From: Eledone cirrhosa
Taxonomy: Eukaryota
Reading direction: 5' to 3'
Assembly: GCA_964016885.1 (NCBI GenBank)
Contig: OZ024743.1
Coordinates: 236,158,001 to 236,222,000, forward strand
DNA: 64,000 nucleotides
Positions 1,303 through 63,712 of this stretch are shown one piece after another (the first letter of the stretch is position 1; every line of letters starts with the position of its first letter). A model generated the notes under the pieces. That model was not told the origin of the DNA, made no database searches, and was given only the letters and a program-made list of their open reading frames with translations. The position numbers were made by a program, and so were the translations under genes.

Positions 1303-4300
1303 CTACAGGCTTATACACAGAGTAGGCCCAATCACTCGGGCCATTTTCGCTTCATTCACCCACCTTTCAGTAAATTTACTGGGGTGCAGTGCCTCTCTTT
1401 CCCCCCTGATTCTCCTTCTAAAGTGATACTTAAAGAAGGGAATCAATTGTTGTCCGGAGAGAAAGGCATCTGTCCTCAGTCCTCTCAACCTCGTCCACCA
1501 TATAACTTCTTTCACCATAGCCACCGTACAGAGGAAAACCGCCTCTCTTTCGTTTTTGAAAGAGGCTGGCGGTTTGATCCTTACTATGGACTCGGCAGTC
1601 AACTGCATTTGTCCCATACGCGACAGTAGTTGTTCTGCATAGTTCCACAGGTCGCTTACGCCCGGTCAGTGTACAATTGCGTGCAGAACTGTTTCGATGT
1701 CCTGCGCACATCCTGGACACGTCCTCTTGGAAGGATCCCTGCCAGGGCGTCCGTGCCTGTAGATCTTGTCACGAACCGGTAGAGCTCCTCGGTAGCACTG
1801 CCAGGCCAGGGACCTTTGGAAGTTGTCCATAGGTCCCGGGCGGAAAGTCCTACCAAACAGACTGGTGAGCTCATCGTCTTCGACGCCCAGAGTCTCTCCG
1901 AGCACGTCGTCGCCCTTGTAACGTACAATCCCTCTATAGAATGTCGAAGTGGAGTCTCCACTGATTGCTGCGCCCGCTTGCCAGAGGACTGTGAGCGCGT
2001 GAGCGCATTCAATGTGCCAGGTACCCATCGTTTTCGGTCTTTTCTTCACGCAGGACTGCAGCTCCGTTAACGAGACGAGCTGTGGGAAAGCCTGTCTCAC
2101 AAACGGTGCCCACACCGGTTGGGGGTCGGTGAGGAATACCTGGAGATGCCGCAGCCTCAGCGCATGTTTGCGCATCATCAGCCACGGCATTCCCAGCCCT
2201 CCGTTGGAAGGGTGCTGACAGCAGACGGATCTCCTCACCAGCGGAGCCTGCTTCTTCCACAGAAATTGGAAGAGCATGCGTTCCATCTTGGCGAGGTGTT
2301 CACGGGGACAAGGCACGACAGTCAAGCGGTAGTAGATGACGGACGCTATGAAAGTGTTCGCCACCTCCGCTCGACCTTTCAAGGACAGTTTGCACTCTGC
2401 CCACTTCTGAGTGAGTGCAAACACCTTGGCCGTGACCGCGTTCCAGTTTTTCTCCACCTGGAGGTCTGGACCGAACCAGACCCCGAGCAATTTCACCGGT
2501 CCGTCCGTCCAGCGTCCAACGACGCTGTCGGATGTCATCGGTTTGCCTCTCCACGTATCGTGTTGCAAACCGACAGACTTGTCTGGGTTTAGTTTTGCTC
2601 CCGTCAGCGTTTCGTATTCTTTCAGTAAGTTGCCGAGCACCCCGATTTCCGAGGTGCTCGACACCATTACCGTCACGTCGTCGGCATAAGCCGACGCCGC
2701 TTTGCGCAGTCCTGGTTCTAGAGGGATGCCCTGCAATAGCTCCAATTTCGGCAGTAGTGGCTCTAGAGTCAATACATACAGAATGGAGGAGAGAGGGCAT
2801 CCCTGTCGAATGGAACGCGTGATTGCGAACGGCTCCGATAGGTAGCCGTTCACCTTGACCCTCGAGCAGATGCTGGTGTGCATCGCCTCGATCCATCCTC
2901 TGAACACGGGACCGAAACCGACCGCCTTGAGAACCGCTTCCAAGTATCGATGGTCGACCCTATCGAATGCCTTAGACTGATACAAGTTGATCAGAGCCCC
3001 ACCGAAGCCGGGTTTACTACCCACCCTCTCTGTGATGTATCGCATGAGGTGGAGGTTGTCGTGTATGGACCTGGTCGGGATTGCACACGTTTGCGCTTTC
3101 CCTACCAGGTTCTCGACAAGCGCCAACCTCGTCGCTAGCACCTTGGCCAAAATCTTTAACTCTGTGTTGAGCAGAGTTATGGGCTTGAAGTTGTTAATTT
3201 CGTCCCCCTTGTTCTCGTCTTTCCTGATCAGAGTTACTACGCCCTTGCCTGCAGAACTGGGAATTCTCCCGTTCTGCTGCCAATTGCAGTAGACGGCTTC
3301 GAGGACGCCAGAGAACAAGTCCGGCATGCCTATGTAAAATTCGTAGTGTAGACCATCTAGACCGGGTGACTTGCGTTTCCGGCATAGGCCCAGAGCGTCT
3401 CGTATCTCAGTGTCCGTGATCGGTCTTTCGCAGAACTCGGCGTCCGTGTTCGAGAGACGCGGCAAGCCGTCGAGGTATGAACTAAAGTCCATTGCCCCGT
3501 TCGGCTCACCGTCGTTCTGCTCAAACAGTCGCGCAAAGTGCTGCTGAAAGGCCGCGCACATTTGCTTTGGGGTCAAGTAGCACGCGTCCGTTTTGGTCTT
3601 TCAAAGACCGAATCGTGGACTTGTTGCCACTTTTTGCCTCCGCCACTCGGGCCCATCTGACAGCTTTCGCTCCTTCGTTTCCTAGAGCACGTGTTTTGCT
3701 TCTGACCACGCAGCCTTCGTGTTTCGCATCGAAGAACTGGTCCACTGCCGTTATCGACGCTAACAATCTAGCCGCGTTGGCACTTCTAAGTGCCTCCTCT
3801 ACCTTGGCTACTAGTTCTCTTTCTATTCTGTTTTTCTCTAAGGCTAACTCTCTGCTATACCCTATCGATTCTATTCTAATTGCTTTCTTGAGAGAGTACC
3901 ACCATCTATTGTTGACGATGGCTCCCGTTAACTGTTGCTTGACTAGCCTACTTATCCGTTCACTGTAAGCTTTACGTGCCGGCAACGACACGTTCAGCTT
4001 CCAGTATCCGGGACCCTGTCTATGTATTCTATCACGGTTGACTAAGCAGACGACTAACTTGTGATCTGAATAGGCAACCATGTGCATTCGTGGACAGCTT
4101 AACATCTGCTTGTCCCTTTCTCTAATGAAGAACCTATCTAAATACGATCTAGATGTCCCACTGCGGTTTACCCACGTCCACTGTAGTGCAGTCGGGAAAT
4201 CCAGTCGATACCTATCGGCCAGATGGAATTGGCCGATTAAAGTTTTGAGGCTGTTGTACTCCGCTCTACTGAGACATGCTCCCACATAGTCCCATCGTGC

Positions 4301-4742
4301 ATCTAGGATACCATTCCAGTCCCCCACTAAAAGTAAGGAGCGAGACGTTCCCAGAAAAGACTCTAGACGTTTAAAGAAGTCTGGCCGTGATTACGATTGC
4401 CCGGTCGAAAACGGCCACCAGTCTGAAGGCTCCACCTCCGATACTGTTCACGTCTAGGACTACCAGTCTACCCTCCGCGTCCAAGTGTACTTGCTGTACT
4501 CCGACGTCCAGGTTATTCCGAAACATAACAGCCACTCCACCTCCACCTTCTGGCTGACAGAGAGATGCGTAGATCTCAAAGTCGTCGAAAATGGGGGTTA
4601 GTTGCTGCCTGTTGTGGATCCTGGACTCGGTGATGGCTATCACATCCATACTGTGTGACCTAAGGTCGTTTAAAAGTTGGCCCTGTTTCCAGGGCATCCC
4701 TAGGCCACGCACATTCACGGTTTCAACTCGTAAACCAGCCAT
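1303..4742 (-). pseudogene. ORF2: APE endonuclease + reverse transcriptase + C-terminal Zn motif; 2 frameshifts and 1 premature stop
   Basis: APE motifs TVNVRGL, AITES, GDWN, YLDRFF, SDH, GYWKLN. RT motifs KSPGLDG, FKPITLLNTELKILAK, KAFDRVDH, RQGCPLS, AYADD. CPGC...ETVLHAIVH* has TGA at 1666-1668 where Cys is expected and continues in frame into 1303..1617. Confidence 0.93.
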
Positions 4743-7150: not shown

Positions 7151-7566
7151 AAGTAAGTGACACAGTCACTACTTTAAAATGATAGCGCAAGGTCTTCAAC
7201 ATGTTTTTAATTAAACATACAGTATATTGCCAAATATACTATACATACATTCATTTATACATCGCTATTTCAGAGCACCAATTCTACTTTTCAATTTTTG
7301 CTGAACCCACAATCGCTCTGTATTATCAATTCCTGATTATTACTGGAATTCTATAAGAATCCAGCCTCTATAATTTTTGGCAGCTGTCGGCGAGTACGTT
7401 GCTCTGAGGAACACCAACAGTGTGAAACAGATCTGTCAGCTTATCTCCCTTCCTTTGCTGAAAAAAGAAGCAAGTGACATAGTCACTACTTTAAAATAAT
7501 AGCGCAAGGTCTTCAAAATGTTTTTAATTAAACATACAGTATATTGCCAAATATACTATACATACA

Positions 7567-17879: not shown

Positions 17880-18097
17880 GCTGCTGCTGTTGTTGTTGTT
17901 GGTGGTGTTGGTGGTCGTGGTGGTGGTGTTGTTGGTGTTGTTGTTGTTGGTGTTGTTGTTGTTGTTGGTGTTGTTGGTGTTGTTGGTGTTGTTGTTGTTG
18001 GTGTTGTTGTTGTTGGTGTTGGTGTTGTTGGTGTTGGTGTTGTTGTTGTTGGTGTTGTTGGTGTTGTTGTTGGTGTTGGTGTTGTTGGTGTTGTTGG

Positions 18098-18128
<31 letters not shown>

Positions 18129-18927
18129 GTTGTTGTTGTTGTTAGTAGTGGTGTTGGTGGTGTTGTTGTTGGTATTGTTGGTGTTGTTGTTGGTGTTGTT
18201 GTTGTTGTTGTTGGTGTTGTTGGTGTTGTTGGTGTTGTTGTTGTTGGTGGTGGTGTTGTTGTTGTTGTTAGTAGTGGTGTTGGTGGTGTTGTTGTTGGTA
18301 TTGTTGGTGGTGTTGTTGGTGTTGTTGTTGTTGTTGTTGTTGGTGTTGTTGGTGTTGTTGGTGTTGTTGTTGTTGGTGGTGGTGTTGTTGTTGTTGTTAG
18401 TAGTGGTGTTGGTGGTGTTGTTGTTGGTATTGTTGGTGGTGTTGTTGGTGTTGTTGTTGTTGTTGTTGGTGTTGTTGGTGTTGTTGGTGTTGTTGTTGTT
18501 GGTGTTGTTGGTGTTGTTGTTGGTGTTGGTGTTGTTGTTGTTGGTGGTGGTGTTGTTGTTGGTGTTGTTGTTGTTGTTGGTGGTGGTGTTGTTGTTGGTG
18601 TTGTTGTTGTTGTTGTTGGTGTTGTTGTTGTTGTTAGTAGTGGTGTTGGTGGTGTTGTTGTTGGTATTGTTGGTGGTGTTGTTGGTGTTGTTGTTGTTGT
18701 TGTTGGTGTTGTTGGTGTTGTTGGTGTTGTTGTTGTTGGTGTTGGTGGTGTTGTTGTTGGTGGTGGTGTTGTTGTTGGTGTTGGTGGTGTTGTTGTTGTT
18801 GGTGGTGGTGTTGTTGTTGGTGTTGTTGTTGGTGTTGTTGGTGGTGTTGTTGGTGTTGTTGTTGTTGGTGTTGTTGTTGTTGTTGTTGTTGGTGGTGGTG
18901 TTGGTGGTGTTGTTGTTGGTGTTGTTG

Positions 18928-18959
<32 letters not shown>

Positions 18960-19689
18960 GTTGGTGGTGTTGTTGTTGTTGTTGGTGTTGTTGTTGTTGT
19001 TAGTAGTGGTGTTGGTGGTGTTGTTGTTGGTATTGTTGGTGGTGTTGTTGGTGTTGTTGTTGTTGTTGTTGTTGTTGTTGGTGTTGTTGGTGTTGTTGGT
19101 GTTGTTGTTGTTGGTGTTGGTGGTGTTGTTGTTGTTGGTGGTGGTGGTGTTGTTGTTGTTGTTGGTGTTGTTGGTGTTGTTGGTGTTGTTGTTGTTGGTG
19201 TTGGTGGTGTTGTTGTTGTTGGTGGTGGTGTTGTTGTTGTTGTTAGTAGTGGTGTTGGTGGTGTTGTTGTTGGTATTGTTGGTGGTGTTGTTAGTGTTGT
19301 TGGTGTTGTTGGTGTTGTTGTTGTTGGTGTTGGTGGTGTTGTTGTTGTTGGTGGTGGTGTTGTTGTTGTTGTTGGTGTTGTTGTTGTTGTTGGTGTTGTT
19401 GGTGTTGTTGGTGTTGTTGTTGGTGTTGGTGTTGTTGTTGTTGTTGTTGGTGGTGGTGGTGTTGTTGTTGTTGGTGTTGGTGTTGGTGTTGTTGGTGTTG
19501 TTGGTGTTGTTGGTGTTGTTGTTGGTGTTGGTGTTGTTGTTGTTGGTGGTGGTGTTGTTGTTGTTGTTGGTGGTGGTGTTGTTGTTGGTGTTGTTGTTGT
19601 TGTTGGTGTTGTTGGTGGTGTTGTTGGTGTTGTTGTTGTTGTTGGTGGTGGTGTTGGTGGTGTTGTTGTTGGTGTTGTTGTTGGTGTTG

Positions 19690-19721
<32 letters not shown>

Positions 19722-20238
19722 GGTGGTGTTGGTGGTGGTGTTGTTGTTGTTGTTAGTAGTGGTGTTGGTGGTGTTGTTGTTGGTATTGTTGGTGGTGTTG
19801 TTGGTGTTGTTGTTGTTGTTGTTGGTGTTGTTGGTGTTGTTGGTGTTGTTGTTGTTGGTGTTGGTGGTGTTGTTGTTGTTGGTGGTGGTGTTGTTGTTGT
19901 TGTTGGTGTTGTTGGTGTTGTTGGTGTTGTTGTTGTTGGTGTTGGTGGTGTTGTTGTTGTTGGTGTTGTTGTTGTTGTTGTTGTTGTTGGTGGTGGTGTT
20001 GTTGTTGTTGGTGTTGGTGTTGGTGTTGTTGGTGTTGTTGGTGTTGTTGTTGTTGGTGTTGTTGGTGTTGTTGTTGGTGTTGGTGTTGTTGTTGTTGGTG
20101 GTGGTGTTGTTGTTGTTGTTGGTGGTGGTGTTGTTGTTGGTGTTGTTGTTGTTGTTGGTGTTGTTGGTGGTGTTGTTGGTGTTGTTGTTGTTGTTGGTGG
20201 TGGTGTTGGTGGTGTTGTTGTTGGTGTTGTTGTTGGTG

Positions 20239-20270
<32 letters not shown>

Positions 20271-23200
20271 GGTGGTGGTGTTGGTGGTGTTGTTGTTGTT
20301 GTTGTTAGTAGTGGTGTTGGTGGTGTTGTTGTTGGTATTGTTGGTGGTGTTGTTGGTGTTGTTGTTGTTGTTGTTGGTGTTGTTGGTGTTGTTGGTGTTG
20401 TTGTTATTGGTGTTGGTGGTGTTGTTGTTGTTGGTGGTGGTGTTGTTGTTGTTGTTGGTGTTGTTGGTGTTGTTGGTGTTGTTGTTGTTGGTGTTGGTGG
20501 TGTTGTTGTTGTTGGTGGTGGTGTTGTTGTTGTTGGTGTTGGTGTTGGTGTTGTTGGTGTTGTTGGTGTTGTTGTTGTTGGTGTTGTTGGTGTTGTTGTT
20601 GGTGGTGGTGTTGTTGTTGTTGTTGTTGGTGGTGGTGGTGTTGTTGTTGTTGGTGGTGGTGTTGTTGTTGTTGTTAGTGGTGGTGTTGGTGGTGTTGTTG
20701 GTGTTGTTGGTGGTGTTGTTGGTGTTGTTGTTGTTGTTGGTGTTGTTGTTGGTGTTGTTGTTGTTGGTGGTGGTGGTGTTGGTGGTGTTGTTGTTGTTGT
20801 TGTTGGTGTTGTTGTTGTTGTTGGTGGTGGTGTTGTTGTTAGTGGTGGTGGTGTTGTTGTTGTTGGTGGTGTTGTTGTTGTTGTTGGTGTTGTTGTTGTT
20901 GTTGGTGGTGGTGTTGTTGTTAGTGGTGGTGTTGTTGTTGTTGGTGGTGTTGTTGTTGGTGTTGTTGGTGGTGTTGTTGGTGTTGTTGTTGTTGTTGTTG
21001 ATGGTGGTGGTGTTGTTGTTGTTAGTGGTGGTGTTGTTGTTGTTGGTGGTGGTGTTGTTGTTGGTGCTATTGGTGGTCGTGGTGGTGTTGGTGGTGTTCG
21101 TGTTGGTGTTGGTGGTGTTGTTGTTGGTGTTGTTGGTGTTGTTGTTGGTGTTGTTGTTGGTGTTGGTGGTGTTGTTGTTGGTGTTGTTGGTGTTGTTGTT
21201 GTTGGTGGTGGTGTTGTTGTTGGTGGTGGTGGTGTTGTTGTTGTTGGTGTTGTTGTTGGTGTTGGTGGTGTTGTTGTTGGTGTTGTTGGTGTTGTTGTTG
21301 GTGGTGTTGTTGTTGTTGGTGTTGTTGGTGTTGTTGTTGGTGTTGTTGGTGTTGTTGGTGTTGTTGTTGGTGGTGTTGTTGGTGTTGTTGGTGTTGTTGT
21401 TGGTGTTGTTGGTGTTGTTGTTGTTATTGGTGTTGTTGTTGTTGGTGGTGTTGTTGGTGTTGTTGTTGGTGTTGTTGGTGTTGTTGTTGTTATTGGTGGT
21501 GTTGTTGTTGTTGTTGGTGTTGTTTGTGTTGTTGTTGGTGTTGTTGGTGTTGTTGTTGTTATTGGTGGTGTTGTTGTTGTTGGTGGTGTTGTTGTTGTTG
21601 GTGTTGTTGTTGTTGTTGTTGGCGTTGTTGTTGGTGTTGGTGGTGTTGTTGTTGTTGCTGTTAGTGTTGTTGTTGTTGGTGTTGTTGCTGGTGTTGGTGG
21701 TGTTGTTGTCGGTGTTGTTGGTGTTGTTGTTGGTGGTGTTGTTGTTGGTGGTGGTGTTGTTGTTGGTGTTGTTGTTGGTGGTGGTGTTGTTGTTGGTGTT
21801 GTTGTTGGTGGTGGTGTTGTTGTTGGTGTTGTTGTTGGTGTTGTTGTTGGTGTTGGTGGTGTTGTTTTTGGTGTTGTTGGTGTTGTTGTTATTGGTGTTG
21901 GTGGTGTTGTTGTTGTTGGTAGTGTTGTTGTTGTTGTTGTTGGTGGTGTTGTTTGTGGTATTGGTGGTGTTGTTGTTGGTGTTGGTGTTAGTGGTATTGT
22001 TGGTGTTGGTGGTGTTGGTGGTGTTGGTGGTGGTGGTGTTGTTGTTGTTGGTGGTGGTGTTGTTGGTGGTGTTGTTGTTGTTGGTGTTGGTGGTGTTGTT
22101 GTTGTTGGTGGTGTTGTTGTTGTTGGTGGTGGTGTTGTTATTGTTGGTGGTGGTGTTGTTGGTGTTGGTGGTGTTGGTGTTGGTGTTGGTGGTGTTGTTG
22201 TTGGTGTTGTTGGTGTTGTTGTTGGTGTTGTTGTTGGTGTTGTTGGTGTTGTTGTTGGTGTTGTTGTTGGTGTTGGTGGTGTTGTTGTTGGTGTTGTTGG
22301 TGTTGTTGTTGTTGTTGGTGGTGTTGGTGGTGGTGGTGGTGGTGTTGTTGTTGTTGGTGTTGTTGTTGGTGTTGGTGGTGTTGTTGTTGGTGTTGTTGGT
22401 GTTGTTGTTGGTGGTGTTGTTGTTGTTGGTGTTGTTGGTGTTGTTGTTGGTGTTCTTGGTGTTGTTGGTGTTGTTGTTGTTATTGGTGTTGTTGTTGTTG
22501 GTGGTGTTGTTGGTGTTGTTGTTGGTGTTGTTGGTGTTGTTGTTGTTATTGGTGGTGTTGTTGTTGTTGTTGGTGTTGTTTGTGTTGTTGTTGGTGTTGT
22601 TGGTGTTGTTGTTGTTATTGGTGGTGTTGTTGTTGTTGGTGGTGTTGTTGTTGTTGGTGTTGTCGTTGTTGTTGTTGGCGTTGTTGTTGGTGTTGTTGGT
22701 GTTGTTGTTGGTGTTGGTGTTGTTGTTGTTGTTGGTGTTGTTGTTGTTGGTGGTGGTGTTGTTGTTGGTGGTGGTGTTGTTGTTGTTGGTGTTGTTGTTG
22801 GTGTTGGTGGTGTTGTTGTTGGTGTTGTAGGTGTTGTTGTTGTTGTTGGTGGTGTTGTTGTTGTTGCTGTTAGTGTTGTTGTTGTTGGTGTTGTTGCTGG
22901 TGTTGGTGGTGTTGTTGTTGGTGTTGTTGGTGTTGTTGTTGGTGGTGTTGTTGTTGGTGGTGGTGTTGTTGTTGGTGTTGTTGTTGGTGGTGGTGTTGTT
23001 GTTGGTGTTGTTGTTGGTGTTGTTGTTGGTGTTGGTGGTGTTGTTTTTGGTGTTGTTGGTGTTGTTGTTATTGGTGTTGGTGGTGTTGTTGTTGTTGGTA
23101 GTGTTGTTGTTGTTGTTGGTGTTGTTTGTGGTATTGGTGGTGTTGTTGTTGGTGTTGGTGTTGGTGGTATTGTTGGTGTTGGTGGTGTTGGTGGTGTTGG

Positions 23201-26200
23201 TGGTGGTGGTGTTGTTGTTGTTGGTGGTGTTGTTGTTGTTGGTGTTGTTGTTGTTGGTGTTGGTGGTGTTGTTGTTGTTGGTGGTGTTGTTGTTGTTGGT
23301 GGTGGTGTTGTTATTGTTGGTGGTGGTGTTGTTGGTGTTGGTGGTGTTGGTGTTGGTGTTGGTGGTGTTGTTGTTGGTGTTGTTGGTGTTGTTGTTGGTG
23401 TTCTTGTTGGTGTTGGTGGTGTTGTTGTTGGTGTTGTTGGTGTTGTTGTTGTTGTTGGTGGTGTTGTTGTTGGTGGTGGTGGTGTTGTTGTTGTTGGTGT
23501 TGTTGTTGGTGTTGGTGGTGTTGTTGTTGGTGTTGTTGGTGTTGTTGTTGGAGGTGTTGTTGTTGTTGGTGTTGTTGGTGTTGTTGTTGGTGTTGTTGTT
23601 GTTGGTGGTGGTGGTGTTGGTGGTGTTGTTGTTGTTGTTGTTGGTGTTGTTGTTGTTGGTGGTGGTGGTGTTGTTGTTAGTGGTGGTGTTGTTGTTGGTG
23701 GTGGTGGTGTTGTTGTTGTTGTTGGTGTTGTTGTTGTTGTTGTTGGTGGTGTTGTTGTTAGTGGTGGTGTTGTTGTTGTTGGTGGTGTTGTTGTTGGTGT
23801 TGTTGGTGGTGTTGTTGGTGTTGTTGTTGTTGTTGTTGATGGTGGTGGTGTTGTTGTTGTTAGTGGTGGTGTTGTTGTTGGTGGTGGTGTTGTTGTTGGT
23901 GCTATTGGTGGTCGTGGTGGTGTTGGTGGTGTTGGTGTTGGTGTTGGTGGTGTTGTTGTTGGTGTTGTTGGTGTTGTTGTTGGTGTTGTTGTTGGTGTTG
24001 GTGGTGTTGTTGTTGGTGTTGTTGGTGTTGTTGTTGTTGTTGGTGGTGTTGTTGTTGGTGGTGGTGGTGTTGTTGTTGTTGGTGTTGTTGTTGGTGTTGG
24101 TGGTGTTGTTGTTGGTGTTGTTGGTGTTGTTGTTGGTGGTGTTGTTGTTGTTGGTGTTGTTGGTGTTGTTGTTGGTGTTGTTGGTGTTGTTGGTGTTGTT
24201 GTTGGTGGTGTTGTTGGTGTTGTTGGTGTTGTTGTTGGTGTTGTTGGTGTTGTTGTTGTTATTGGTGTTGTTGTTGTTGGTGGTGTTGTTGGTGTTGTTG
24301 TTGGTGTTGTTGGTGTTGTTGTTGTTATTGGTGGTGTTGTTGTTGTTGTTGGTGTTGTTTGTGTTGTTGTTGGTGTTGTTGGTGTTGTTGTTGTTATTGG
24401 TGGTGTTGTTGTTGTTGGTGGTGTTGTTGTTGTTGGTGTTGTTGTTGTTGTTGTTGGCGTTGTTGTTGGTGTTGGTGGTGTTGTTGTTGGTGTTGGTGTT
24501 GTTGTTTTTGTTGTTGTTGGTGTTGTTGTTGTTGGTGGTGGTGTTGTTGTTGTTGGTGGTGGTGTTGTTGTTGGTGTTGGTGGTGTTGTTGTTGGTGTTG
24601 TAGGTGTTGTTGTTGTTGTTGGTGGTGTTGTTGTTGTTGCTGTTAGTGTTGTTGTTGTTGGTGTTGTTGCTGGTGTTGGTGGTGTTGTTGTTGGTGTTGT
24701 TGGTGTTGTTGTTGGTGGTGTTGTTGTTGGTGGTGGTGTTGTTGTTGGTGTTGTTGTTGGTGGTGGTGTTGTTGTTGGTGTTGTTGTTGGTGTTGTTGTT
24801 GGTGTTGGTGGTGTTGTTTTTGGTGTTGTTGGTGTTGTTGTTATTGGTGTTGGTGGTGTTGTTGTTGTTGGTAGTGTTGTTGTTGTTGTTGGTGGTGTTG
24901 TTTGTGGTATTGGTGGTGTTGTTGTTGGTGTTGGTGTTGGTGGTATTGTTGGTGTTGGTGGTGTTGGTGGTGTTGGTGGTGGTGGTGTTGTTGTTGTTGG
25001 TGGTGGTGTTGTTGGTGGTGTTGTTGTTGTTGGTGTTGGTGGTGTTGTTGTTGTTGGTGTTGGTGGTGTTGTTGTTGTTGGTGGTGTTGTTGTTGTTGGT
25101 GGTGGTGTTGTTATTGTTGGTGGTGGTGTTGTTGGTGTTGGTGGTGTTGGTGTTGGTGTTGGTGGTGTTGTTGTTGGTGTTGTTGGTGTTGTTGTTGGTG
25201 TTGTTGTTGGTGTTGGTGGTGTTGTTGTTGGTGTTGTTGGTGTTGTTGTTGTTGTTGGTGGTGTTGTTGTTGGTGGTGGTGGTGTTGTTGTTGTTGGTGT
25301 TGTTGTTGGTGTTGGTGGTGTTGTTGTTGGTGTTGTTGGTGTTGTTGGTGGTGTTGTTGTTGTTGGTGTTGTTGGTGTTGTTGTTGGTGTTGTTGGTGTT
25401 GTTGTTGTTATTGGTGTTGTTGTTGTTGGTGGTGTTGTTGGTGTTGTTGTTGGTGTTGTTGGTGTTGTTGTTGTTATTGGTGGTGTTGTTGTTGTTGGTG
25501 TTGTTTGTGTTGTTGTTGGTGTTGTTGGTGTTGTTGTTGTTATTGGTGGTGTTGTTGTTGTTGGTGGTGTTGTTGTTGTTGGTGGTGGTGTTGTTGTTGT
25601 TGGTGTTGGTGTTGTTGGTGTTGTTGGTGTTGTTGTTGTTGGTGTTGTTGGTGTTGTTGTTGGTGGTGATGTTGTTGTTGTTGTTGTTGGTGGTGGTGGT
25701 GTTGTTGTTGTTGGTGGTGGTGTTGTTGTTGTTGTTAGTGGTGGTGTTGGTGGTGTTGTTGTTGGTGTTGTTGGTGGTGTTGTTGGTGTTGTTGTTGGTG
25801 GTGTTGGTGGTGTTGTTGTTGGTGTTGTTGTTGGTGTTGTTGTTGTTGTTGGTGGTGGTGGTGTTGGTGGTGTTGTTGTTGTTGTTGTTGGTGTTGTTGT
25901 TGTTGGTGGTGGTGGTGTTGTTGTTAGTGGTGGTGTTGTTGTTGTTGTTGGTGGTGTTGTTGTTGTTGTTGGTGTTGTTGTTGTTGTTGGTGGTGGTGTT
26001 GTTGTTAGTGGTGGTGTTGTTGTTGTTGGTGGTGTTGTTGTTGGTGTTGTTGGTGGTGTTGTTGGTGTTGTTGTTGTTGTTGTTGATGGTGGTGGTGTTG
26101 TTGTTGTTAGTGGTGGTGTTGTTGTTGTTGGTGGTGGTGTTGTTGTTGGTGCTATTGGTGGTCGTGGTGGTGTTGGTGGTGTTGGTGTTGGTGTTGGTGG

Positions 26201-29200
26201 TGTTGTTGTTGGTGTTGTTGGTGTTGTTGTTGGTGTTGTTGTTGGTGTTGGTGGTGTTGTTGTTGGTGTTGTTGGTGTTGTTGTTGTTGGTGGTGTTGTT
26301 GTTGGTGGTGTTGGTGTTGTTGTTGTTGGTGTTGTTGTTGGTGTTGGTGGTGTTGTTGTTGGTGTTGTTGGTGTTGTTGTTGGTGGTGTTGTTGTTGTTG
26401 GTGTTGTTGGTGTTGTTGTTGGTGTTGTTGGTGTTGTTGGTGTTGTTGTTGGTGGTGTTGTTGGTGTTGTTGGTGTTGTTGTTGGTGTTGTTGGTGTTGT
26501 TGTTGTTATTGGTGTTGTTGTTGTTGGTGGTGTTGTTGGTGTTGTTGTTGGTGTTGTTGGTGTTGTTGTTGTTATTGGTGGTGTTGTTGTTGTTGTTGGT
26601 GTTGTCTGTGTTGTTGTTGGTGTTGTTGGTGTTGTTGTTGTTATTGGTGGTGTTGTTGTTGTTGGTGGTGTTGTTGTTGTTGGTGTTGTTGTTGTTGTTG
26701 TTGGCGTTGTTGTTGGTGTTGGTGGTGTTGTTGTTGTTGTTGGTGTTGTTGTTGTTGGTGGTGGTGTTGTTGTTGGTGCAGGTGTTGTTGTTGTTGGTGT
26801 TGTTGTTGGTGTTGGTGGTGTTGTTGTTGGTGTTGTAGGTGTTGTTGTTGTTGTTGGTGGTGTTGTTGTTGTTGCTGTTAGTGTTGTTGTTGTTGGTGTT
26901 GTTGCTGGTGTTGGTGGTGTTATTGTTGGTGTTGTTGGTGTTGTTGTTGGTGGTGTTGTTGTTGGTGGTGGTGTTGTTGTTGGTGTTGTTGTTGGTGGTG
27001 GTGTTGTTGTTGGTGTTGTTGTTGGTGTTGTTGTTGGTGTTGTTGTTGGTGCTGGTGGTGTTGTTTTTGGTGTTGTTGGTGTTGTTGTTATTGGTGTTGG
27101 TGGTGTTGTTGTTGTTGGTAGTGTTGTTGTTGTTGTTGGTGGTGTTGTTTGTGGTATTGGTGGTGTTGTTGTTGGTGTTGGTGTTGGTGGTATTGTTGGT
27201 GTTGGTGGTGTTGGTGGTGTTGGTGGTGGTGGTGTTGTTGTTGTTGGTGGTGGTGTTGTTGCTGGTGTTGTTGTTGTTGGTGTTGGTGGTGTTGTTGTTG
27301 TTGTTGGTGGTGTTGTTGTTGTTGGTGGTGGTGTTGTTATTGTTGGTGGTGTTGTTGTTGGTGTTGGTGGTGTTGGTGTTGGTGTTGGTGGTGTTGTTGT
27401 TGATGTTGTTGGTGTTGTTGTTGGTGTTCTTGTTGGTGTTGGTGGTGTTGTTGTTGGTGTTGTTGGTGTTGTTGTTGTTGGTGGTGGTGTTGTTGTTGGT
27501 GGTAGTGGTGTTGTTGTTGTTGGTGTTGTTGTTGGTGTTGGTGGTGTTGTTGTTGGTGTTGTTGGTGTTGTTGTTGGTGGTGTTGTTGTTGTTGGTGTTG
27601 TTGGTGTTGTTGTTGGTGTTGTTGGTGTTGTTGTTGTTATTGGTGTTGTTGTTGTTGGTGTTGTTGTTGGTGTTGTTGGTATTGTTGTTGTTATTGGTGG
27701 TGGTGTTGTTGTTGTTGGTGTTGTTTGTGTTGTTGTTGGTGTTGTTGGTGTTGTTGTTGTTATTGGTGGTGTTGTTGTTGTTGGTGTTGTTGTTGTTGTT
27801 GGTCTTATTGTTGTTGTTGTTGGCGTTGTTGTTGGTGTTGGTGGTGTTGTTGTTGGTGTTGTTGTTGTTGTTGTTGGTGGTGTTGTTGTTGTTGGTGGTG
27901 GTGTTGTTGTTGTTGGTGTTGTTGTTGGTGTTGTTGTTGTTGTTGTTGTTGTTGTTGGTGTTGTTGTTGTTGGTGGTGGTGTTGTTGTTGTTGGTGTTGT
28001 TGTTGGTGTTGGTGGTGTTGTTGTTGGTGATGTAGGTGTTGTTGTTGTTGTTGGTGGTGTTGTTGTTGTTGTTGGTGGTAGTGTTGTTGTTGTTGGTGTT
28101 GTTGCTGGTGTTGGTGGTGTTGTTGTTGGTGTTGTTGGTGTTGTTGTTGGTGGTGTTGTTGTTGGTGGTGGTGTTGTTGTTGGTGTTGTTGTTGGTGGTG
28201 GTGTTGTTGTTGGTGTTGTTGTTGGTGTTGTTGTTGGTGTTGGTGGTGTTGTTTTTGGTGTTGTTGGTGTTGTTGTTATTGGTGTTGGTGGTGTTGTTGT
28301 TGTTGGTAGTGTTGTTGTTGTTGTTGGTGGTGTAGTTTGTGGTATTGGTGGTGTTGTTGTTGGTGTTGGTGTTGGTGGTATTGTTGGTGTTGGTGGTGTT
28401 GGTGGTGTTGGTGGTGGTGGTGTTGTTGTTGTTGGTGGTGGTGTTGTTGGTGGTGTTGTTGTTATTGGTGTTGGTGGTGTTGTTGTTGGTGGTGGTGTTG
28501 TTGTTGTTGTTGGTGGTGTTGTTATTGTTGGTGGTGGTGTTGTTGGTGTTGGTGGTGTTGTTGGTGGCGTTGTTGGTGTTGTTGGTGTTGGTGGTGTTGT
28601 CGGTGGTGTTGGTGGTGTTGTTGTTGGTGGTGTTGTTGGTGTTGCTGTTGGTGTTGGTGGTGTTGTTGTTGGTGTTGGTCGTGTTGTTGTTTGTGTTGTT
28701 GGTGTTGTTGTTGTTGGTGTTGATGGTGTTGTTGGTGGTGTTGTTGTTGTTGGTGGTGTTGTTGTTGGTGGTGTTGTTGTTGGTGGTGGTGTTGTTGTTG
28801 TTGGTGGTGGTGCTGCTGGTGTTTGTGGTGTTTTTGGTGTTGGTGTTGGTGGTGTTGTTGGTGTTGGGGGTGTTGGTGGTGTTGGTGGTGTTGTTGGTGG
28901 TGTTGTTGGTGTTGGTGGTGCTGTAGATGTTGGTGGTGTTGTTGTTGGTGTTGGTGGTGTTGTTGGTGTTGGTGGTGGTGGTGTTGTTGTTGGTGGTGGT
29001 GTTGTTGGTGTTGGTGGTGTTGTTGGTGGTATTGGTGGTGGTGTTGTTGTTGTTGATGGTGTTGTTGTTGGTGGTGTTGTTTTTGGTGTTGTTGGTGTTG
29101 TTGTTGTTGGTGTTGGTGGTGTTGTTGTTGTTGGTAGTGTTGTTGTTGTTGTTGTTGGTGTTGTTGGTGGTATTGGTGGTGTTGGTGTTGGTGTTGGTGG

Positions 29201-29472
29201 TATTGTTGGTGTTGGTGGTGTTGGTGGTGTTGGTGGTGTTGGTGGTGTTGGTGGTGTTGTGGTGGTGGTGTTGGTGTTGCTGGTGGTATTGTTGTTGGTG
29301 GTGTTGTTGGTGGTGTTGGTGGTGGTGGTGGTAGTGTTGGTGTTGCTGGTGTTGTTGGTGTGGTTGTTGGTGTTGTTGGTGTTGGTGGTGTTGGTGGTGT
29401 TTTGTGTTGTTGGTGGTGGTGTTGATGTTGGTGGTATTGTTGGTGTTGGTGGTGTTGGTTGCGTTGTTGGTG
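17880..29472. repeat. 11.6-kb (GTT/GGT)n compound array with kb-scale internal duplications; Thr/Pro mucin-like frame open on the minus strand
   Basis: Unbroken 3-nt phase; variant markers recur at 21066, 23901 and 26151. Confidence 0.95.
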
Positions 29473-29688
29473 TGAAAGGTGTTCCTCCTCTGATAATTTT
29501 ACTGTTTAACACTTGATTGATCAGAGATATTAGTATTTTAAAAAAACCTGTAATGTTCGTAGAAATGCACGTTTGGGTTGTGTTTATATTATTGTATGTT
29601 TGTATAGGTAGTATATAATGTATGTTTATATAGGTAGTAGATGGGGTGTGGTGAGGGTATACAGTTTTAAATAGTACTAAGAAATATT

Positions 29689-32494: not shown

Positions 32495-32577
32495 TGTGTG
32501 TATGTATGTATGTATATCTATATATATATATATAGAGAGAGAGAATAGAATGAAACGAAATTTCATTTCTCACTCTT

Positions 32578-32634
32578 AGGAAGGTATACGATGCTGACGA
32601 TAGCTAATAAGCTTGAAACTAGTACATCGTTCCT
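32578..32634 (+). ncRNA. Type I HHR (430-bp family)
   Basis: agga..acgatg-CTGACGA-tagct(aata)agctt-GAAA-ctag-TA-catcgt-tcct. Confidence 0.8.
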
Positions 32635-32849
32635 GTGTCAGTGTTGAACAAAAAGGTGACGTGGTTGCCTAAACACTGTACGGCGTAATTCGGGGTGTTG
32701 GTTTGTTTACAAACAAACAAACCGAACATTATAGTAAATGTTCAGTAAACCGATACGTGCATATATATATATGTGTGCATGTATGTATATATATACATAC
32801 TACTGTACGTCTGTATACATATATGTATGTACGTATACATACATACATA

Positions 32850-33342: not shown

Positions 33343-33559
33343 GTGTATATGTATGTATACATATATATGTGTGTGTATATGTATATACACATATATATAT
33401 GTATATGTATATATACATATATATATATGTATATGTATGTATATGTATATATGTATCTATATGTATATATATATGAATATATATATAAATGTAAGTATGT
33501 ATGTATACGTACATACATATATGTATACAGACGTACAGTAGCATGCATATATATATATA

Positions 33560-33775
33560 AGGCGTGTGGCTGAGTGGTTAGAGAATTGGATTCGCAATCG
33601 TAAGGTTGTGAGTTCGATTCCTGGACCAGGCGATGCGTTATGTCCTTGAGCAAGACACTTTATTTCACGTTGCTCCTTCTACCTGGAGCTGCGACCGATA
33701 GATAGTATTAGCAATTGGAAAGACCAACGGAAACATTGTTCCCTCGGTCCGATTTGACGAAAGTCGATCGTTCTT
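33560..33775 (+). mobile_element. SINE family 2 (CORE-like); its 3' part recurs inverted at ~36990-37113
   Basis: A-box tggctgagtgg, B-box gttcgattcc, core tgtccttgagcaagacactt. Confidence 0.8.
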
Positions 33776-33946
33776 CTTCTTCATATATATATATATACAT
33801 ACAGGTACACATATATATATGTACGTATCAGTTTAGCGGACGTTTATTATAACGCCCGCTTTGTCCGTTTGTAAACAAACGGACAGCCTGATTTATGCCG
33901 TACGGTGTTAAGGCAACCACGTCACCTTTTTGTTCAACACTGACAC

Positions 33947-34003
33947 AGGAACGATGTACTAGTTTCAAGCTTCTTAGCTATCATCAGCACTGTGTACCCT
34001 TCT
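33947..34003 (-). ncRNA. Type I HHR (430-bp family), stem I partly decayed
   Basis: acagtg-CTGATGA-tagctaagaagctt-GAAA-ctag-TA-catcgt. Confidence 0.65.
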
Positions 34004-34228
34004 GCCAGATGGTTGAACGTTCGAAAGTATATACTTTCCTTATGAAAATTAACGGCTGAGCAGCCTAATTTGCATATCGAGTGAGTTCAGTCGGCCAGGC
34101 GTACCGAAAACGATAAGTTGTAATAGAATGAAACGAAATTTCATTTCTCACTCTTGGAACGGCACTTACTTAAATGTAAGTATGTATGTATACGTACATA
34201 CATATATGTATACAGACGTACAGTAGCA

Positions 34229-34308
<80 letters not shown>

Positions 34309-34474
34309 CAGGTACACATATATATATGTACGTATCAGTTTAGCGGACGTTTATTATAACGCCCGCTTTGTCCGTTTGTAAACAAACGGACAGTCTAATT
34401 TGTTTACAAACGGACAAAGCGGGCGTTATAATAAACGTCCGCTAAACTGATACGTACATATATATGTGTACCTG

Positions 34475-34534
<60 letters not shown>

Positions 34535-34739
34535 TGCTACTGTACGTCTGTATACATATATGTATGTACGTATACATACATACTTACATTTAAGTAAGTG
34601 CCGTACTAAGAGTGAGAAATGAAATTTCGTCTCATTCTATTACAATATATATATACATATATATATAATATATATATATAATATATATATAATATATATA
34701 TAATATATATATAATATATATATATATACATATACATAT

Positions 34740-52662: not shown

Positions 52663-52724
<62 letters not shown>

Positions 52725-53124
52725 CATATATATATACATACACACACATATATATATATACAGACACACATATATATATATATATAAACGGAAAAGATGA
52801 AACGAAATTTCATTTCTCACTCTTAGTACGGCTATTACTTAAATATAAGTATGTATACGTACATACATATATGTATACAGACGTACAGTAGTATGTATAT
52901 ATATATATACATACATGCACACATATATATATGTACGTATGGATTCACCGAACATTTATTATAATGCTCGGTGTGTTTGTAAACAAACATCCCGAATTAA
53001 GCCGTACAGTGTCTAGCAGCCATCGTTGCTCATTTGTTCAACACTGACAAAGGAACGCTGTACTAGTTTCAGCCGTTAATATGCATAAGGAAAGTATATA
53101 CTTTCAGCCGTTCAATCATCTGGC

Positions 53125-53181
53125 AGGAAGGTATACGCTGCTGACGATAGCTAATAAGCTTGAAACTAGTACAGCGTTCCT
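53125..53181 (+). ncRNA. Type I HHR (430-bp family); second copy at 53555-53611
   Basis: agga..acgctg-CTGACGA-tagct(aata)agctt-GAAA-ctag-TA-cagcgt-tcct. Confidence 0.82.
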
Positions 53182-53482
53182 TTGTCAGTGTTGAATAAAT
53201 GAGCAACGATGGTTGCTAGACACTGTACGGCTTAATTCGGGATGTTTGTTTACAAACACACCGAGCATTATAATAAATGTTCGGTGAATCCATACGTACA
53301 TATATATATGTGTGCATGTATGTATATATATATACATACTACTGTACGTCTGTATACATATATGTATGTACGTATACATACTTATATTTAAGTAACAGCC
53401 GTACTAAGAGTGAGAAATGAAATTTCGTTTCATCTTTTCCGTTTATCGTTTTCGGTATGCTCGGCCGATTAACTCACTCGAT

Positions 53483-53534
53483 ATGCAAATTAGGCTGCTC
53501 AGCCGTTAATATGCATAAGGAAAGTATATACTTT
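53483..53534 (+). promoter_or_regulatory. Octamer (ATGCAAAT) plus palindromic TATA cassette upstream of the HHR
   Basis: ATGCAAAT at 53483-90 and aaagtatatacttt at 53521-34; both conserved in the copy at 34024-34075. Confidence 0.35.
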
Positions 53535-53810
53535 CAGCCGTTCAATCATCTGGCAGGAAGGTATACGTTGCTGACGATAGCTAATAAGCTTGAAACTAGT
53601 ACAGCGTTCCTTTGTCAGTGTTAAATAAATGAGCAACGATGGTTGCTAGACACTGTACGGCTTAATACGGGATGTTTGTTTACAAACACACCGAGCATTA
53701 TAATAAATGTTCGGTGAATCCATACGTACATATATATATGTGTGCATGTATGTATATATATATACATACTACTGTACGTCTGTATACATATATGCATGTA
53801 CGTATACATA

Positions 53811-53893
<83 letters not shown>

Positions 53894-61744: not shown

Positions 61745-63712
61745 GTGATTGCTTCATCTTGGCAGATGATTGCCGTCTCCCTATGCAACCCCATCAACCG
61801 TCATCAACTCCAAACGTCCGTTCGTGGGCTTTTAAGTCCAGCATTAGATTTGCACGATCTGCAGCAAATTTGACAGACAAAAGATGTGCCCTCTATTTGA
61901 TTTATTGGGTAATCTTGGTGATGTCATCCTTATGTACCCTCACATTCCTTTTAAGACCAGAGATTGATTTACAGATCTTTCTACACACAACACATGTTCT
62001 CTCACATAGCATTGGAGGGATAGAGCTGCATACAGTTGTCTTTTTATGTGATTTTAAATGAGTGATGTACCCAGATTTAGAGAGCAGTAAATGACCACAC
62101 ACCCCACAAATCCAGCTCCCTATGTTCTTATTGAGGTTGATACTGTGGCCTTTTCGAAGCTGATGTTTATGTTTTTCATGATCAAGACATCTCTCTTCAA
62201 ACATTCTGCAGCTTCCTTCACATGTCCTCTCCATTTACCCCTCTTTAAAGCAAGCACTTCCCAGTTCTAAATTTTAAACTGTAGATCTTCAAGATTGCTT
62301 TTTATGCAATCCTTATATCTTTTTCTTGGTTTGTGCTGAGGACGTTTCCCTGTGTGTAATTGACTGTAAAATAGTTATTTTGGGAGTTTTTCCTCATTCA
62401 TGTGCACAATGTGGCCTACCCAACACATTTGAGAGGATATGATGGTAGAATCAATGCTCGTGCAACCAGCAACTATAAGGATTTGTGTATCAGGTATTTT
62501 TTGTTGCCATTTGATGTTTAGGATTCGTCTTAAACACTTTTGATTAAAGTGTTCAAGCAAATTAAGGTGTCTACGGTGTACTGTCTACTTTTCCGAAGAG
62601 TACAACATAGCACTAGGAACGCAGGCCTTGTACACACTAGTGTTGGTCTTGGCATTGATCCCATGATCCACCCACACTCTCTTTTCAAGTTTTCCGAAGG
62701 TTACAGAGGCCTTCTGAATGTGCAGGTGTATTTCTGCATCCAGTGAACCATCCCTTGGTAACGCACTACCCAGGTAAACAAAAGTATCAACTACACCCAA
62801 CCTAGTTACATTCACCATTGGTGAATTGGCAATATCGGTAGAGGGTTGGACACCATGCTTTCTAGCATAGTTACGTCCCTTTACGGTCTGAGTTCAAATC
62901 CCGCCATGGTTAACTTTGCCTTTCATCCTTGCGAGGTCGATAAAATAAAGTACCAGTAATGTGCTGGGTAATTGCTGGCCTTGTGCCAAAAGTAGAAACA
63001 ATTATATTTGACTCAATATATACTTCCCCTGGTGATGGGGTGAACATTACCTTGGTCTTTTTTATAATCGTCATGCCAAAGGCATTACAAGAAGCTATAA
63101 AAGAATCCATGATGTGTTGCATGTCATCTTGAGAGTGAACCAGAAAGTCAACTTCGTCTGCATACAGGAGTTCTCTAATTAATATTTGGAACACCTTGGA
63201 TTTGAAATTGAACCTTCTTAGGTCAAAAATCCTTCCTGTTGTTCTAACTTGCAGTGGAACACCCTTTGCACAGCCCTGGAATGCATGAGTCAGTATCACA
63301 GCAAAAAATATTGAAAACAGTGTGGGAGCCGGGATATCTCCCTGCTTCACACCATTATCAACTGGGATTTCATTGGACAATTCTCCATTCAAGACAACCC
63401 GAGCCTTCGTATTTCTGTGCAGTCGGACAAACATATCAATAAACTTTGTTGGGCACTCTATTTTCCCTATTTTAACAGTGCACCTCCGTTCACCGTATCT
63501 AAGGCCTTTGTCAGATCAACAAAAACCTGATACAGAGGTTGCTGTATCAGAGGTTGCTCAATACATTTCTCCTAAATCTGCCTTGCAGAGATCATATCAA
63601 TCGCTCCTCTGCCAGATCTAAAGACACTTTGTGATCCAGGGATTACTGTAGGACAAATGTCCTCCATTAACCTGTTCAACAATAATCTAGCAAGAACTTT
63701 GTCTTTTTAAAA
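61745..63712 (-). mobile_element. 5'-truncated RTE-clade LINE (RT + C-terminal C2H2 fingers), decayed, with (TA) tail
   Basis: GVKQGDIPAPTLF, ELLYADE, FVYLGS, HFNQKCLRRIL, WVGHIVHM; fingers CGVC..H..SH and CVVC. Confidence 0.9.
62818..63004 (+). mobile_element. SINE family 1 inserted into the RTE ORF
   Basis: Interrupts ...ESNI / MVNVTRL... Confidence 0.88.

Follow-up and report, generated by a model that had tools for sequence, protein, structure and literature searches.

A two-armed insertion between (TA)n tracts of a tandem hammerhead element in Eledone cirrhosa: a likely non-LTR retrozyme with a candidate U6-like promoter

Metazoan non-LTR retrozymes are reported as RNA circles in coral, mussel, and axolotl, and those of mussel amount to about 5000 cores in units of 350-390 bp (Cervera & de la Peña 2020, PMC7229834). 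In Xenopus, one of nine retrozyme dimers was reported to cleave in vitro, and the elements resemble pLTRs (Li, Clavereau & Pollet 2026, 10.64898/2026.07.22.740005). Mobilisation of retrozymes by Penelope elements (PLEs) has been proposed from co-occurrence and pLTR similarity (PMC7229834, 10.64898/2026.07.22.740005). The insertions of PLEs are described as carrying an inverted 5'-truncated copy, partial tandems, a tail of 30-40 bp that is often at one end only, and (TA)n targets (PMC8557442). Hammerheads of the PLE type are described as slow, and the minimal architecture with palindromic stem III as inefficient when monomeric and active when tandem copies form a dimer (PMC4209133). Two further systems couple a promoter to a hammerhead: the SINE-like SM-alpha of schistosomes is reported to be transcribed by Pol III, and newt satellite 2 by Pol II from an snRNA-type promoter. 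In both, the promoter of one unit is reported to transcribe the next, and single copies cannot propagate (PMC6765202, PMC2220036). The accessible text of PMC5680766 holds nothing decisive for the comparison.

The window, a 64,000-nt stretch of the 3.0-Gb, microsatellite-rich genome of Eledone cirrhosa, contains three insertions of one hammerhead family. We read the most complete one, at 52784-53820, as a two-armed insertion of an abundant non-coding tandem element with a structurally conserved type I hammerhead, that is, a non-LTR retrozyme. Each unit likely bears a U6-like promoter, the RNA is predicted to cut itself as a dimer and to yield circles, and a PLE likely copied it into (TA)n. We give this reading a probability of about 0.62.

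Locus architecture and hammerhead form

Self-comparison by period reveals a 430-bp direct repeat at 53069-53820. At period 430, 314 of 320 positions are identical, compared with 54-98 of about 320 at periods 428, 429, 431, and 432; the two units disagree at 53138, 53193, 53237, and 53365. The inverted partial copy is 97-99% complementary to the direct copies, overlaps them by 3 nt (53069-53071), and holds only the 3' part of the hammerhead. With (TA)n present on both flanks, the layout is the one given by the initial annotation, the roughly 1.7 direct copies named there measuring 1.75 units. Positions along the unit are given as phases, with phase 1 at 53069 and the predicted cut after phase 103. 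No ORF of at least 150 aa occurs within 52784-53820, hence the RT + GIY-YIG ORF of an autonomous EN+ PLE is absent, and no LTR layout is visible in the element sequence. Among the other two insertions, the one at 32545-32848 has one hammerhead (core 32594, plus strand) with A-U at stem I pair 3. The one at 33496-34635 is interrupted near 33560-33782 and has its core at 33987 on the minus strand, with G·U at stem I pair 3 and U at N7. Aside from the family, the window holds LINE-like ORF pieces at 1666-4390 and 62910-63515 (both minus strand; RT, weak endonuclease match), and an 11.6-kb GTT/GGT simple-repeat array at 17889-29473 with near-total strand skew, which yields stop-free frames of about 4000 codons.

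Table 1. Features of the 52784-53820 element and of the other family insertions, in window coordinates
Feature	Position	Strand	Remarks
Left target microsatellite	52686..52783	.	(TA)n-rich; from sequence
Inverted arm	52784..53071	-	unit phase 93-378; ends at 'long' 3' end with 56-nt tail
Direct arm	53069..53820	+	1.75 tandem 430-bp units, 5'-truncated; 'short' 3' end, phase 322
Hammerhead 1 with extended stem I	53120..53188	+	predicted cut after 53171
Hammerhead 1, stem I	53135-53140/53172-53177	+	from pairing
Hammerhead 1, core	53141-53147	+	U10.1 = 53148, U11.1 = 53161
Hammerhead 1, stem II	53149-53152/53157-53160	+	from pairing
Hammerhead 1, G12-A14	53162-53164	+	
Hammerhead 1, palindromic stem III	53165-53170	+	
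Predicted cut-to-cut monomer	53172..53601	+	430 nt; no ORF; strongly self-paired
'Tail' between the two preferred 3' end points	53391..53446	+	56 nt; at one outer end only in inverted insertions
Only two T4 runs on sense strand of unit	53435..53452	+	at 53435 and 53449, around the long end
Promoter-like block	53482..53530	+	12-nt box 53482-53493, TATA 53525-53530
Hammerhead 2	53550..53618	+	predicted cut after 53601
Right target microsatellite	53821..53877	.	(TA)n; from sequence
Second family insertion	32545..32848	+	inverted tail fragment 32545-32577 plus 5'-truncated arm; short end
Third family insertion, two-armed	33496..34635	-	diverged subfamily, 81-83% identical; short and long ends

The type I cores begin at 53141 and 53571, and their GUA triplets end at 53171 and 53601. 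The motif positions of the cleavage predicted in the initial annotation, 430 nt apart, are hence confirmed, and so are its stem I letters at all three places that it cited. It listed the cores at those places correctly and overlooked the fourth, at 33987. Its statement that N7 varies between C and T does not hold for the three cited cores, which all have C, and is right for the fourth core and for the family as a whole. The stem I extension that it drew as agga/tcct is not a conserved register, as columns 53127-53129 differ between subfamilies; the conserved extension pairs 53129-53131 with 53179-53181 and 53120-53125 with 53183-53188. The core has the type I letters C3 U4 G5 A6 N7 G8 A9, G12 A13 A14, A15.1-U16.1, and H17. 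N17 is A in this family and U in a 466-bp sister unit. Stem III consists of 2 bp and a 2-nt loop, and the 6-mer 53165-53170 is self-complementary. Rfam at gathering thresholds returned no match in the window, a result that says nothing against the hammerhead motif.

The usual G10.1-C11.1 pair is replaced in this family by U·U, and the sister unit has G-C. A 31-place pattern of the hammerhead core has 25,179 exact matches genome-wide on both strands, with none for the reversed control, and all of these have T at 10.1; a non-T base at 10.1 is found in only 189 core matches. U10.1·U11.1 is hence the state of the family and not a product of decay. As U·U is also reported to be a natural hammerhead variant and the best-tolerated mismatch at this pair (Perreault et al., PMC3088659), we count G10.1-C11.1 as a consensus feature, not a defining one. 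Both points settle the caveat about U-U that had been attached to the motif. At least 11 of the 189 matches carry the double change C10.1·A11.1, and none of the 100 listed is G-C. These C10.1·A11.1 copies form a small propagated subfamily with a second non-Watson-Crick pair at that place (e.g., L129:4778-4827). Other hammerhead families of the genome also open stem II with U·U, one of them in the 3' repeat of an RT + GIY-YIG PLE. A ribozyme that combines U·U at 10.1-11.1 with a stem III of 2 bp is expected to be weak.

Folded as a linear molecule, the cut-to-cut monomer has -145.5 kcal/mol (z -9.0); as a circle, in which the extended stem I and stem II both form, it has -141.1 (z -8.0). A natural stretch lacking the TA-rich core still reaches z -3.4. 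The unit has 36.5% GC.

Hammerhead-like motifs of other kinds recur in the genome. A further family with a longer palindromic stem III is present at window positions 7385-7450 (plus strand) and at L020, L034, and L062. Another recurrent motif, with a short stem II, is present at L015, L135, L138, L142, and L147. An unrelated 310-bp hammerhead array family (L051, L052, L121) has U·U at 10.1-11.1 and a different palindromic stem III.

Family size and conservation of pairing

The promoter-side pattern of the unit has 15,869 matches genome-wide. Units of the family are 420-500 bp long, and insertions are dispersed over many chromosomes. Of 127 sampled insertions, 68 have a single core and 36 have two, and arrays reach 14 cores. 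The family thus shows the sequence properties of non-LTR retrozymes: a short non-coding tandem unit with a hammerhead in consecutive units, dispersal, high copy number, low GC, and a highly self-paired monomer. A pattern for relatives with the same stem III and a different stem II start gave 173 matches, of which the 100 listed are mutated family copies. The 466-bp sister, which lies at L188:1-830 and was found only as a neighbour, is identical to the unit at 256 of 430 positions and shares the stem III palindrome and the U6-like box described below. Runs X4 and X5, from two other organisms, gave 9 and 14 short contigs at low depth and are not counted toward the distribution.

For the family alignment we collected 238 distinct cores in 127 clusters, with a cutoff of 11 mismatches from the 43-nt motif. 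At stem I pair 3, the 127 insertions have U·G (62), G·U (31), A-U (22), C-G (6), U-A (4), and U·U (2); 125 are therefore paired, in five pairing forms. When 26 clusters that had been picked as best BLAST matches are left out, 99 of 101 remain paired against 50.6 expected if the two sides were independent, and C-G drops to one. These counts reflect few lineage events rather than 100, and most loci were selected on the core pattern. The C-G at 53138 is a rare one-sided variant of the common U·G. The compensatory change in stem I that the initial annotation had reported between loci is thus compensatory across the family, although the C-G form on which it relied is rare.

An independent check comes from run X1, whose reads were placed at 80% likeness and are unselected for the ribozyme. 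Over 53135-53177, only 53138, its partner 53174, and loop II position 53155 vary at a depth of at least 10%, and N7 varies at about 5%. With 3 of 43 columns polymorphic, the hammerhead region shows no overall deficit of polymorphism relative to the rest of the unit. The ribozyme of the 466-bp sister aligns without gaps and keeps the core and stem III, and both sides are changed in three pairs of stem II and in two further pairs of stem I. In an 8-row alignment that includes the sister, double-sided changes occur in 6 of 13 pairs, a number reached in none of 500 shuffles, and slid controls gave 0-2; the shuffle test ignores the relatedness of the rows, and five of the six double changes come from the one sister lineage. 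Within the family, covariation amounts to one pair and few lineage events, with stems II and III invariant. Invariance means that stem III carries no covariation; the fold of stems I-III with an open stem I is supported by covariation overall. The stem I change is hence no isolated coincidence, the sister adding five double-sided changes, and the pair-preserving changes in family and sister support the earlier proposal of a retrozyme under selection for structure.

Insertion ends, template, and candidate promoter

The 3' ends of insertions fall at phase 322 ('short') or phase 378 ('long'), 56 nt apart, and both merge into (TA)n via a short TA-like match. (TA)4 or longer is present after 88 of the 104 short ends and after 74 of the 89 long ones, a count made without a shuffle control and in which some 'long' calls are diverged continuing units. 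Among 49 divergent two-armed insertions, 43 pair a long with a short end, two are short/short, none is long/long, and four are unclassified; the rule of one long and one short end (43/45) has a p of about 6e-11. A landmark method applied to 60 insertions gave 45 long+short, two short/short, no long/long, and 13 others. All three insertions in the window follow the rule. The family hence displays the traits of PLE-type insertion, namely an inverted 5'-truncated arm, partial tandems, a tail at one end, and a microsatellite target. These findings support mobilisation by PLEs, and the one-tail end rule speaks for the PLE RT that the initial annotation had named.

EN+ PLEs are abundant in the genome, which gave 150 scored GIY-YIG matches from 10,596 candidates, and RT and GIY-YIG stand together in 5 of 20 ORFs scanned. 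One PLE family has the same two-end geometry: at L146, a tail of about 50 nt closes one arm and is missing from the arm opposite. In 50 GIY-YIG loci (of the 10,596 candidates), the unit has no homology to PLE ends or terminal repeats, and BLAST of the 430-bp and 466-bp units against these loci returned only embedded copies and microsatellite matches. A 936-aa frame abutting the L095 array was considered as a partner and rejected, being an RT ORF without GIY-YIG and with an in-frame microsatellite fusion. The RT + GIY-YIG PLE family at L136, L137, L139, L146, L149, and L090 has two 3' ends about 50 nt apart and a 3' repeat with its own U10.1·U11.1 hammerhead.

The lengths of the arms bear on the template. 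Among the 124 arms whose 3' end is canonical and whose identity reaches at least 86%, 102 run more than 8 nt beyond the cut site, one stops there, and 21 stop before it, the share crossing being inflated as most loci were chosen for core presence. More than half of the arms (64/124) are longer than one unit, and the longest has 3220 nt. Partner arms do not pile up at phase 104, so the usual template was not a cut linear monomer. At 39 polymorphic columns, opposite arms are discordant at 39 of 959 sites (4.1%; 36 pairs) and tandem neighbours at 111 of 2489 (4.5%; 87 pairs). The corresponding value for random insertions is 39.5%, and the background at other columns is 2.4-3.5%. Since arms differ at 4.1% rather than 39.5%, one RNA haplotype usually supplied both arms; clear mixtures occur in two of the 36 pairs of arms and in about 10 of the 87 pairs of neighbours, the latter with 4-7 polymorphic differences. 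At 52784-53820, rare letters are shared at phase 366 by the inverted arm and unit 1 and at phase 40 by both direct units, and the arms differ at polymorphic phases 128 and 169. A circular template would be a simple fit to these data, and a homogeneous uncut multimer would fit as well.

The latter possibility defines the strongest alternative, which keeps the same element and the PLE machinery. Here a linear multimer made by read-through, either uncut or cut in part, would serve as the template, the hammerhead would only trim 5' ends or cut rarely, and no circle would be needed. Arms that cross the cut site and homogeneity within insertions are also expected from homogeneous source arrays. The mixed neighbour pairs reveal that some arrays are heterogeneous, and a weak-looking ribozyme agrees with the low cleavage reported in PMC4209133 and 10.64898/2026.07.22.740005. 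Against it, the predominance of one- and two-core insertions means that long homogeneous arrays are uncommon, while arms reach 3220 nt, and the retrozymes of coral, mussel, and axolotl are reported to accumulate as circles (PMC7229834). We regard this template as possible but unlikely.

Changes counted on the ribozyme-sense strand are asymmetric. Among changes common to all units of an insertion, A>G outnumbers T>C by 14 to 3 (p 0.013), whereas unit-private changes are balanced (42 vs 41). At two context-matched palindromic sites genome-wide, A>G counts are 84 and 99 and T>C counts 56 and 63 (183 vs 119); with neighbours merged by eye from the listings, they become 157 vs 107 (p = 0.0025). The A>G excess suggests that the strand bearing the hammerhead passes through an RNA stage. 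The excess stems from recurrent columns, as columns with at most one event have 17 vs 23. ADAR has a neighbour preference that the A>G sites do not show. With this misfit and without an excess in singleton columns, ADAR editing is not established as the cause. The excess may instead reflect selection for G·U pairs, for which the same sign is predicted. One unit, at L195:1283-1605, has six A>G among eight changes at near-fixed columns, like a hyper-edited template.

Each full unit contains a promoter-like block upstream of the hammerhead. Its 12-nt box has a match, at -77 to -79, in six of nine distinct upstream regions of host U6 genes, drawn from three genomic sites with 20 of 48 U6 matches examined. 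It is absent from 7 distinct U2 upstream regions (16 of 48 U2 matches examined), which also hold TATA-like runs. The box arose in 2 of 4000 unit shuffles, its motif having been written after both sequence sets were seen, and is 12/12 identical in the 466-bp sister. The spacing from box to TATA is 42 nt in the unit and 46-48 nt in host U6. Local alignment of the promoter region with U6 upstream DNA was borderline, at best 14 and 17 of 300 shuffles, and the TATA sits in a palindrome and may simply belong to an RNA hairpin. The box was found in none of 20 cores of the 310-bp array family and in none of 7 cores of the PLE terminal repeat studied in detail, which has a different upstream layout. 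A box that is shared with host U6 upstream regions and missing from those of U2 suggests a Pol III promoter of the upstream type. U6 geometry would place the start near 53555 (phase 57), at the 5' strand of the extended stem I, and the two T4 runs are candidate weak Pol III terminators. At 52784-53820, the arm is truncated at phase 1 and the box stands only before the second hammerhead, so transcription from the locus's own promoter would probably give no 430-nt monomer. U6 snRNA genes stand in tandem at C19:31.78-31.84 Mb with a period of about 1.8 kb, and U2 snRNA genes at C3:307.35-307.45 Mb with a period of about 2.2 kb.

In the mechanism that we propose, Pol III-type initiation would occur about 30 nt past the TATA, and the weak T4 runs would be read through into the next unit. 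Two tandem hammerheads paired through the 6-nt palindromic stem III would cleave the dimer into unit-length RNAs, which would then be ligated to a circle. The GIY-YIG endonuclease of a PLE would nick (TA)n, its RT would start from short TA-like matches at two points separated by 56 nt, and the same RNA would be copied to either side of the break, frequently going round more than once.

Remaining alternatives and relation to known systems

The unit could be the pseudo-LTR of an unsampled autonomous PLE, with the arrays as its 5'-truncated tandem insertions and no independent retrozyme. The end geometry is that of PLEs, Xenopus retrozymes are reported to resemble pLTRs (10.64898/2026.07.22.740005), and the loci examined cover 50 of the 150 scored GIY-YIG matches. 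In the approximately 130 insertions examined, however, the unit runs 5' into itself and no shared upstream coding sequence was seen. The long ORF at L095 is set off by (TA)n aside from lacking GIY-YIG, homology to PLE flanks is missing in the 50 loci, and the one PLE terminal repeat studied differs in upstream layout and lacks the box, all of which makes this reading improbable. Very improbable is a DNA-level satellite or LINE-mobilised SINE with the hammerhead as a passenger without current function: RT ORFs without GIY-YIG adjoin some copies, arrays reach the lengths given above, and run X1 reveals no reduced polymorphism in the hammerhead region, yet the dispersal over many chromosomes, the pair-preserving changes, the fixed staggered ends, and an A>G asymmetry confined to insertion-shared changes stand against it, and end geometry and covariation have largely refuted it already.

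A more specific form of the retrozyme reading is a self-sufficient RNA circle, in which every unit would have a Pol III promoter of the host U6 type, a U·U hammerhead gated by dimerisation, and two TA-like sites for priming, spaced by 56 nt. A PLE enzyme would start twice on a single circle and copy outward by rolling on either side of the (TA)n break. We propose it tentatively. If true, the rule of one long and one short end would let the chemistry of PLE integration be read directly from the genome, and the element would offer a minimal substrate of 430 nt with which to reconstitute that reaction. An in vitro system for tandem and inverted PLE insertion is named as the next task in PMC8557442, and a short non-coding substrate that is primed at two defined places would be well suited to such a system. 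The natural pair of sisters, one with G-C and the other with U·U, makes it possible to ask directly whether selection favours a weakened core for the survival of circles or multimers.

The retrozyme class and the proposed PLE route are already known, and the family itself appears to be a new member; titles and the beginnings of abstracts revealed no published description of it, and cephalopod hammerheads may be among those tabulated in the supplements of PMC7229834 and Lünse et al. What is new is countable evidence for the PLE route at the level of insertions, namely staggered ends that match those of a resident PLE, a single template haplotype shared by the two arms, and copying that does not stop at the cut site. 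The family also offers a concrete promoter candidate.

Like the metazoan non-LTR retrozymes as reported, the family consists of non-coding tandem units with a type I hammerhead, low in GC, self-paired, present in thousands of copies, and coexisting with PLEs. Its units are at or above the reported range of 150-450 bp, and it differs in the family-wide U·U at 10.1-11.1 and in ends that merge into (TA)n. Two-armed insertions with staggered ends and a U6-like box are not described in the accessible text of PMC7229834 and 10.64898/2026.07.22.740005. Metazoan retrozymes have been observed as RNA circles; those of this family are predicted. Unlike EN+ PLEs, it has no ORF and no sequence homology to the sampled PLE ends, and its tail has 56 nt compared with the reported 30-40 (about 50 in the resident PLE family). 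Different from the minimal PLE hammerhead form, it has a canonical 6-bp stem I and a 4-bp stem II. It resembles EN+ PLEs and their pseudo-LTR hammerheads in the partial tandems, the inverted 5'-truncated copy, the one-end tail, the (TA)n, and the palindromic minimal stem III (PMC8557442, PMC4209133). Its candidate promoter would give each tandem unit the order known from schistosome SM-alpha and newt satellite 2, in which an internal promoter precedes the hammerhead (PMC6765202, PMC2220036). Unlike the Pol II promoter reported for newt satellite 2, the box of the family matches host U6 and not U2, which suggests a promoter of the Pol III type.
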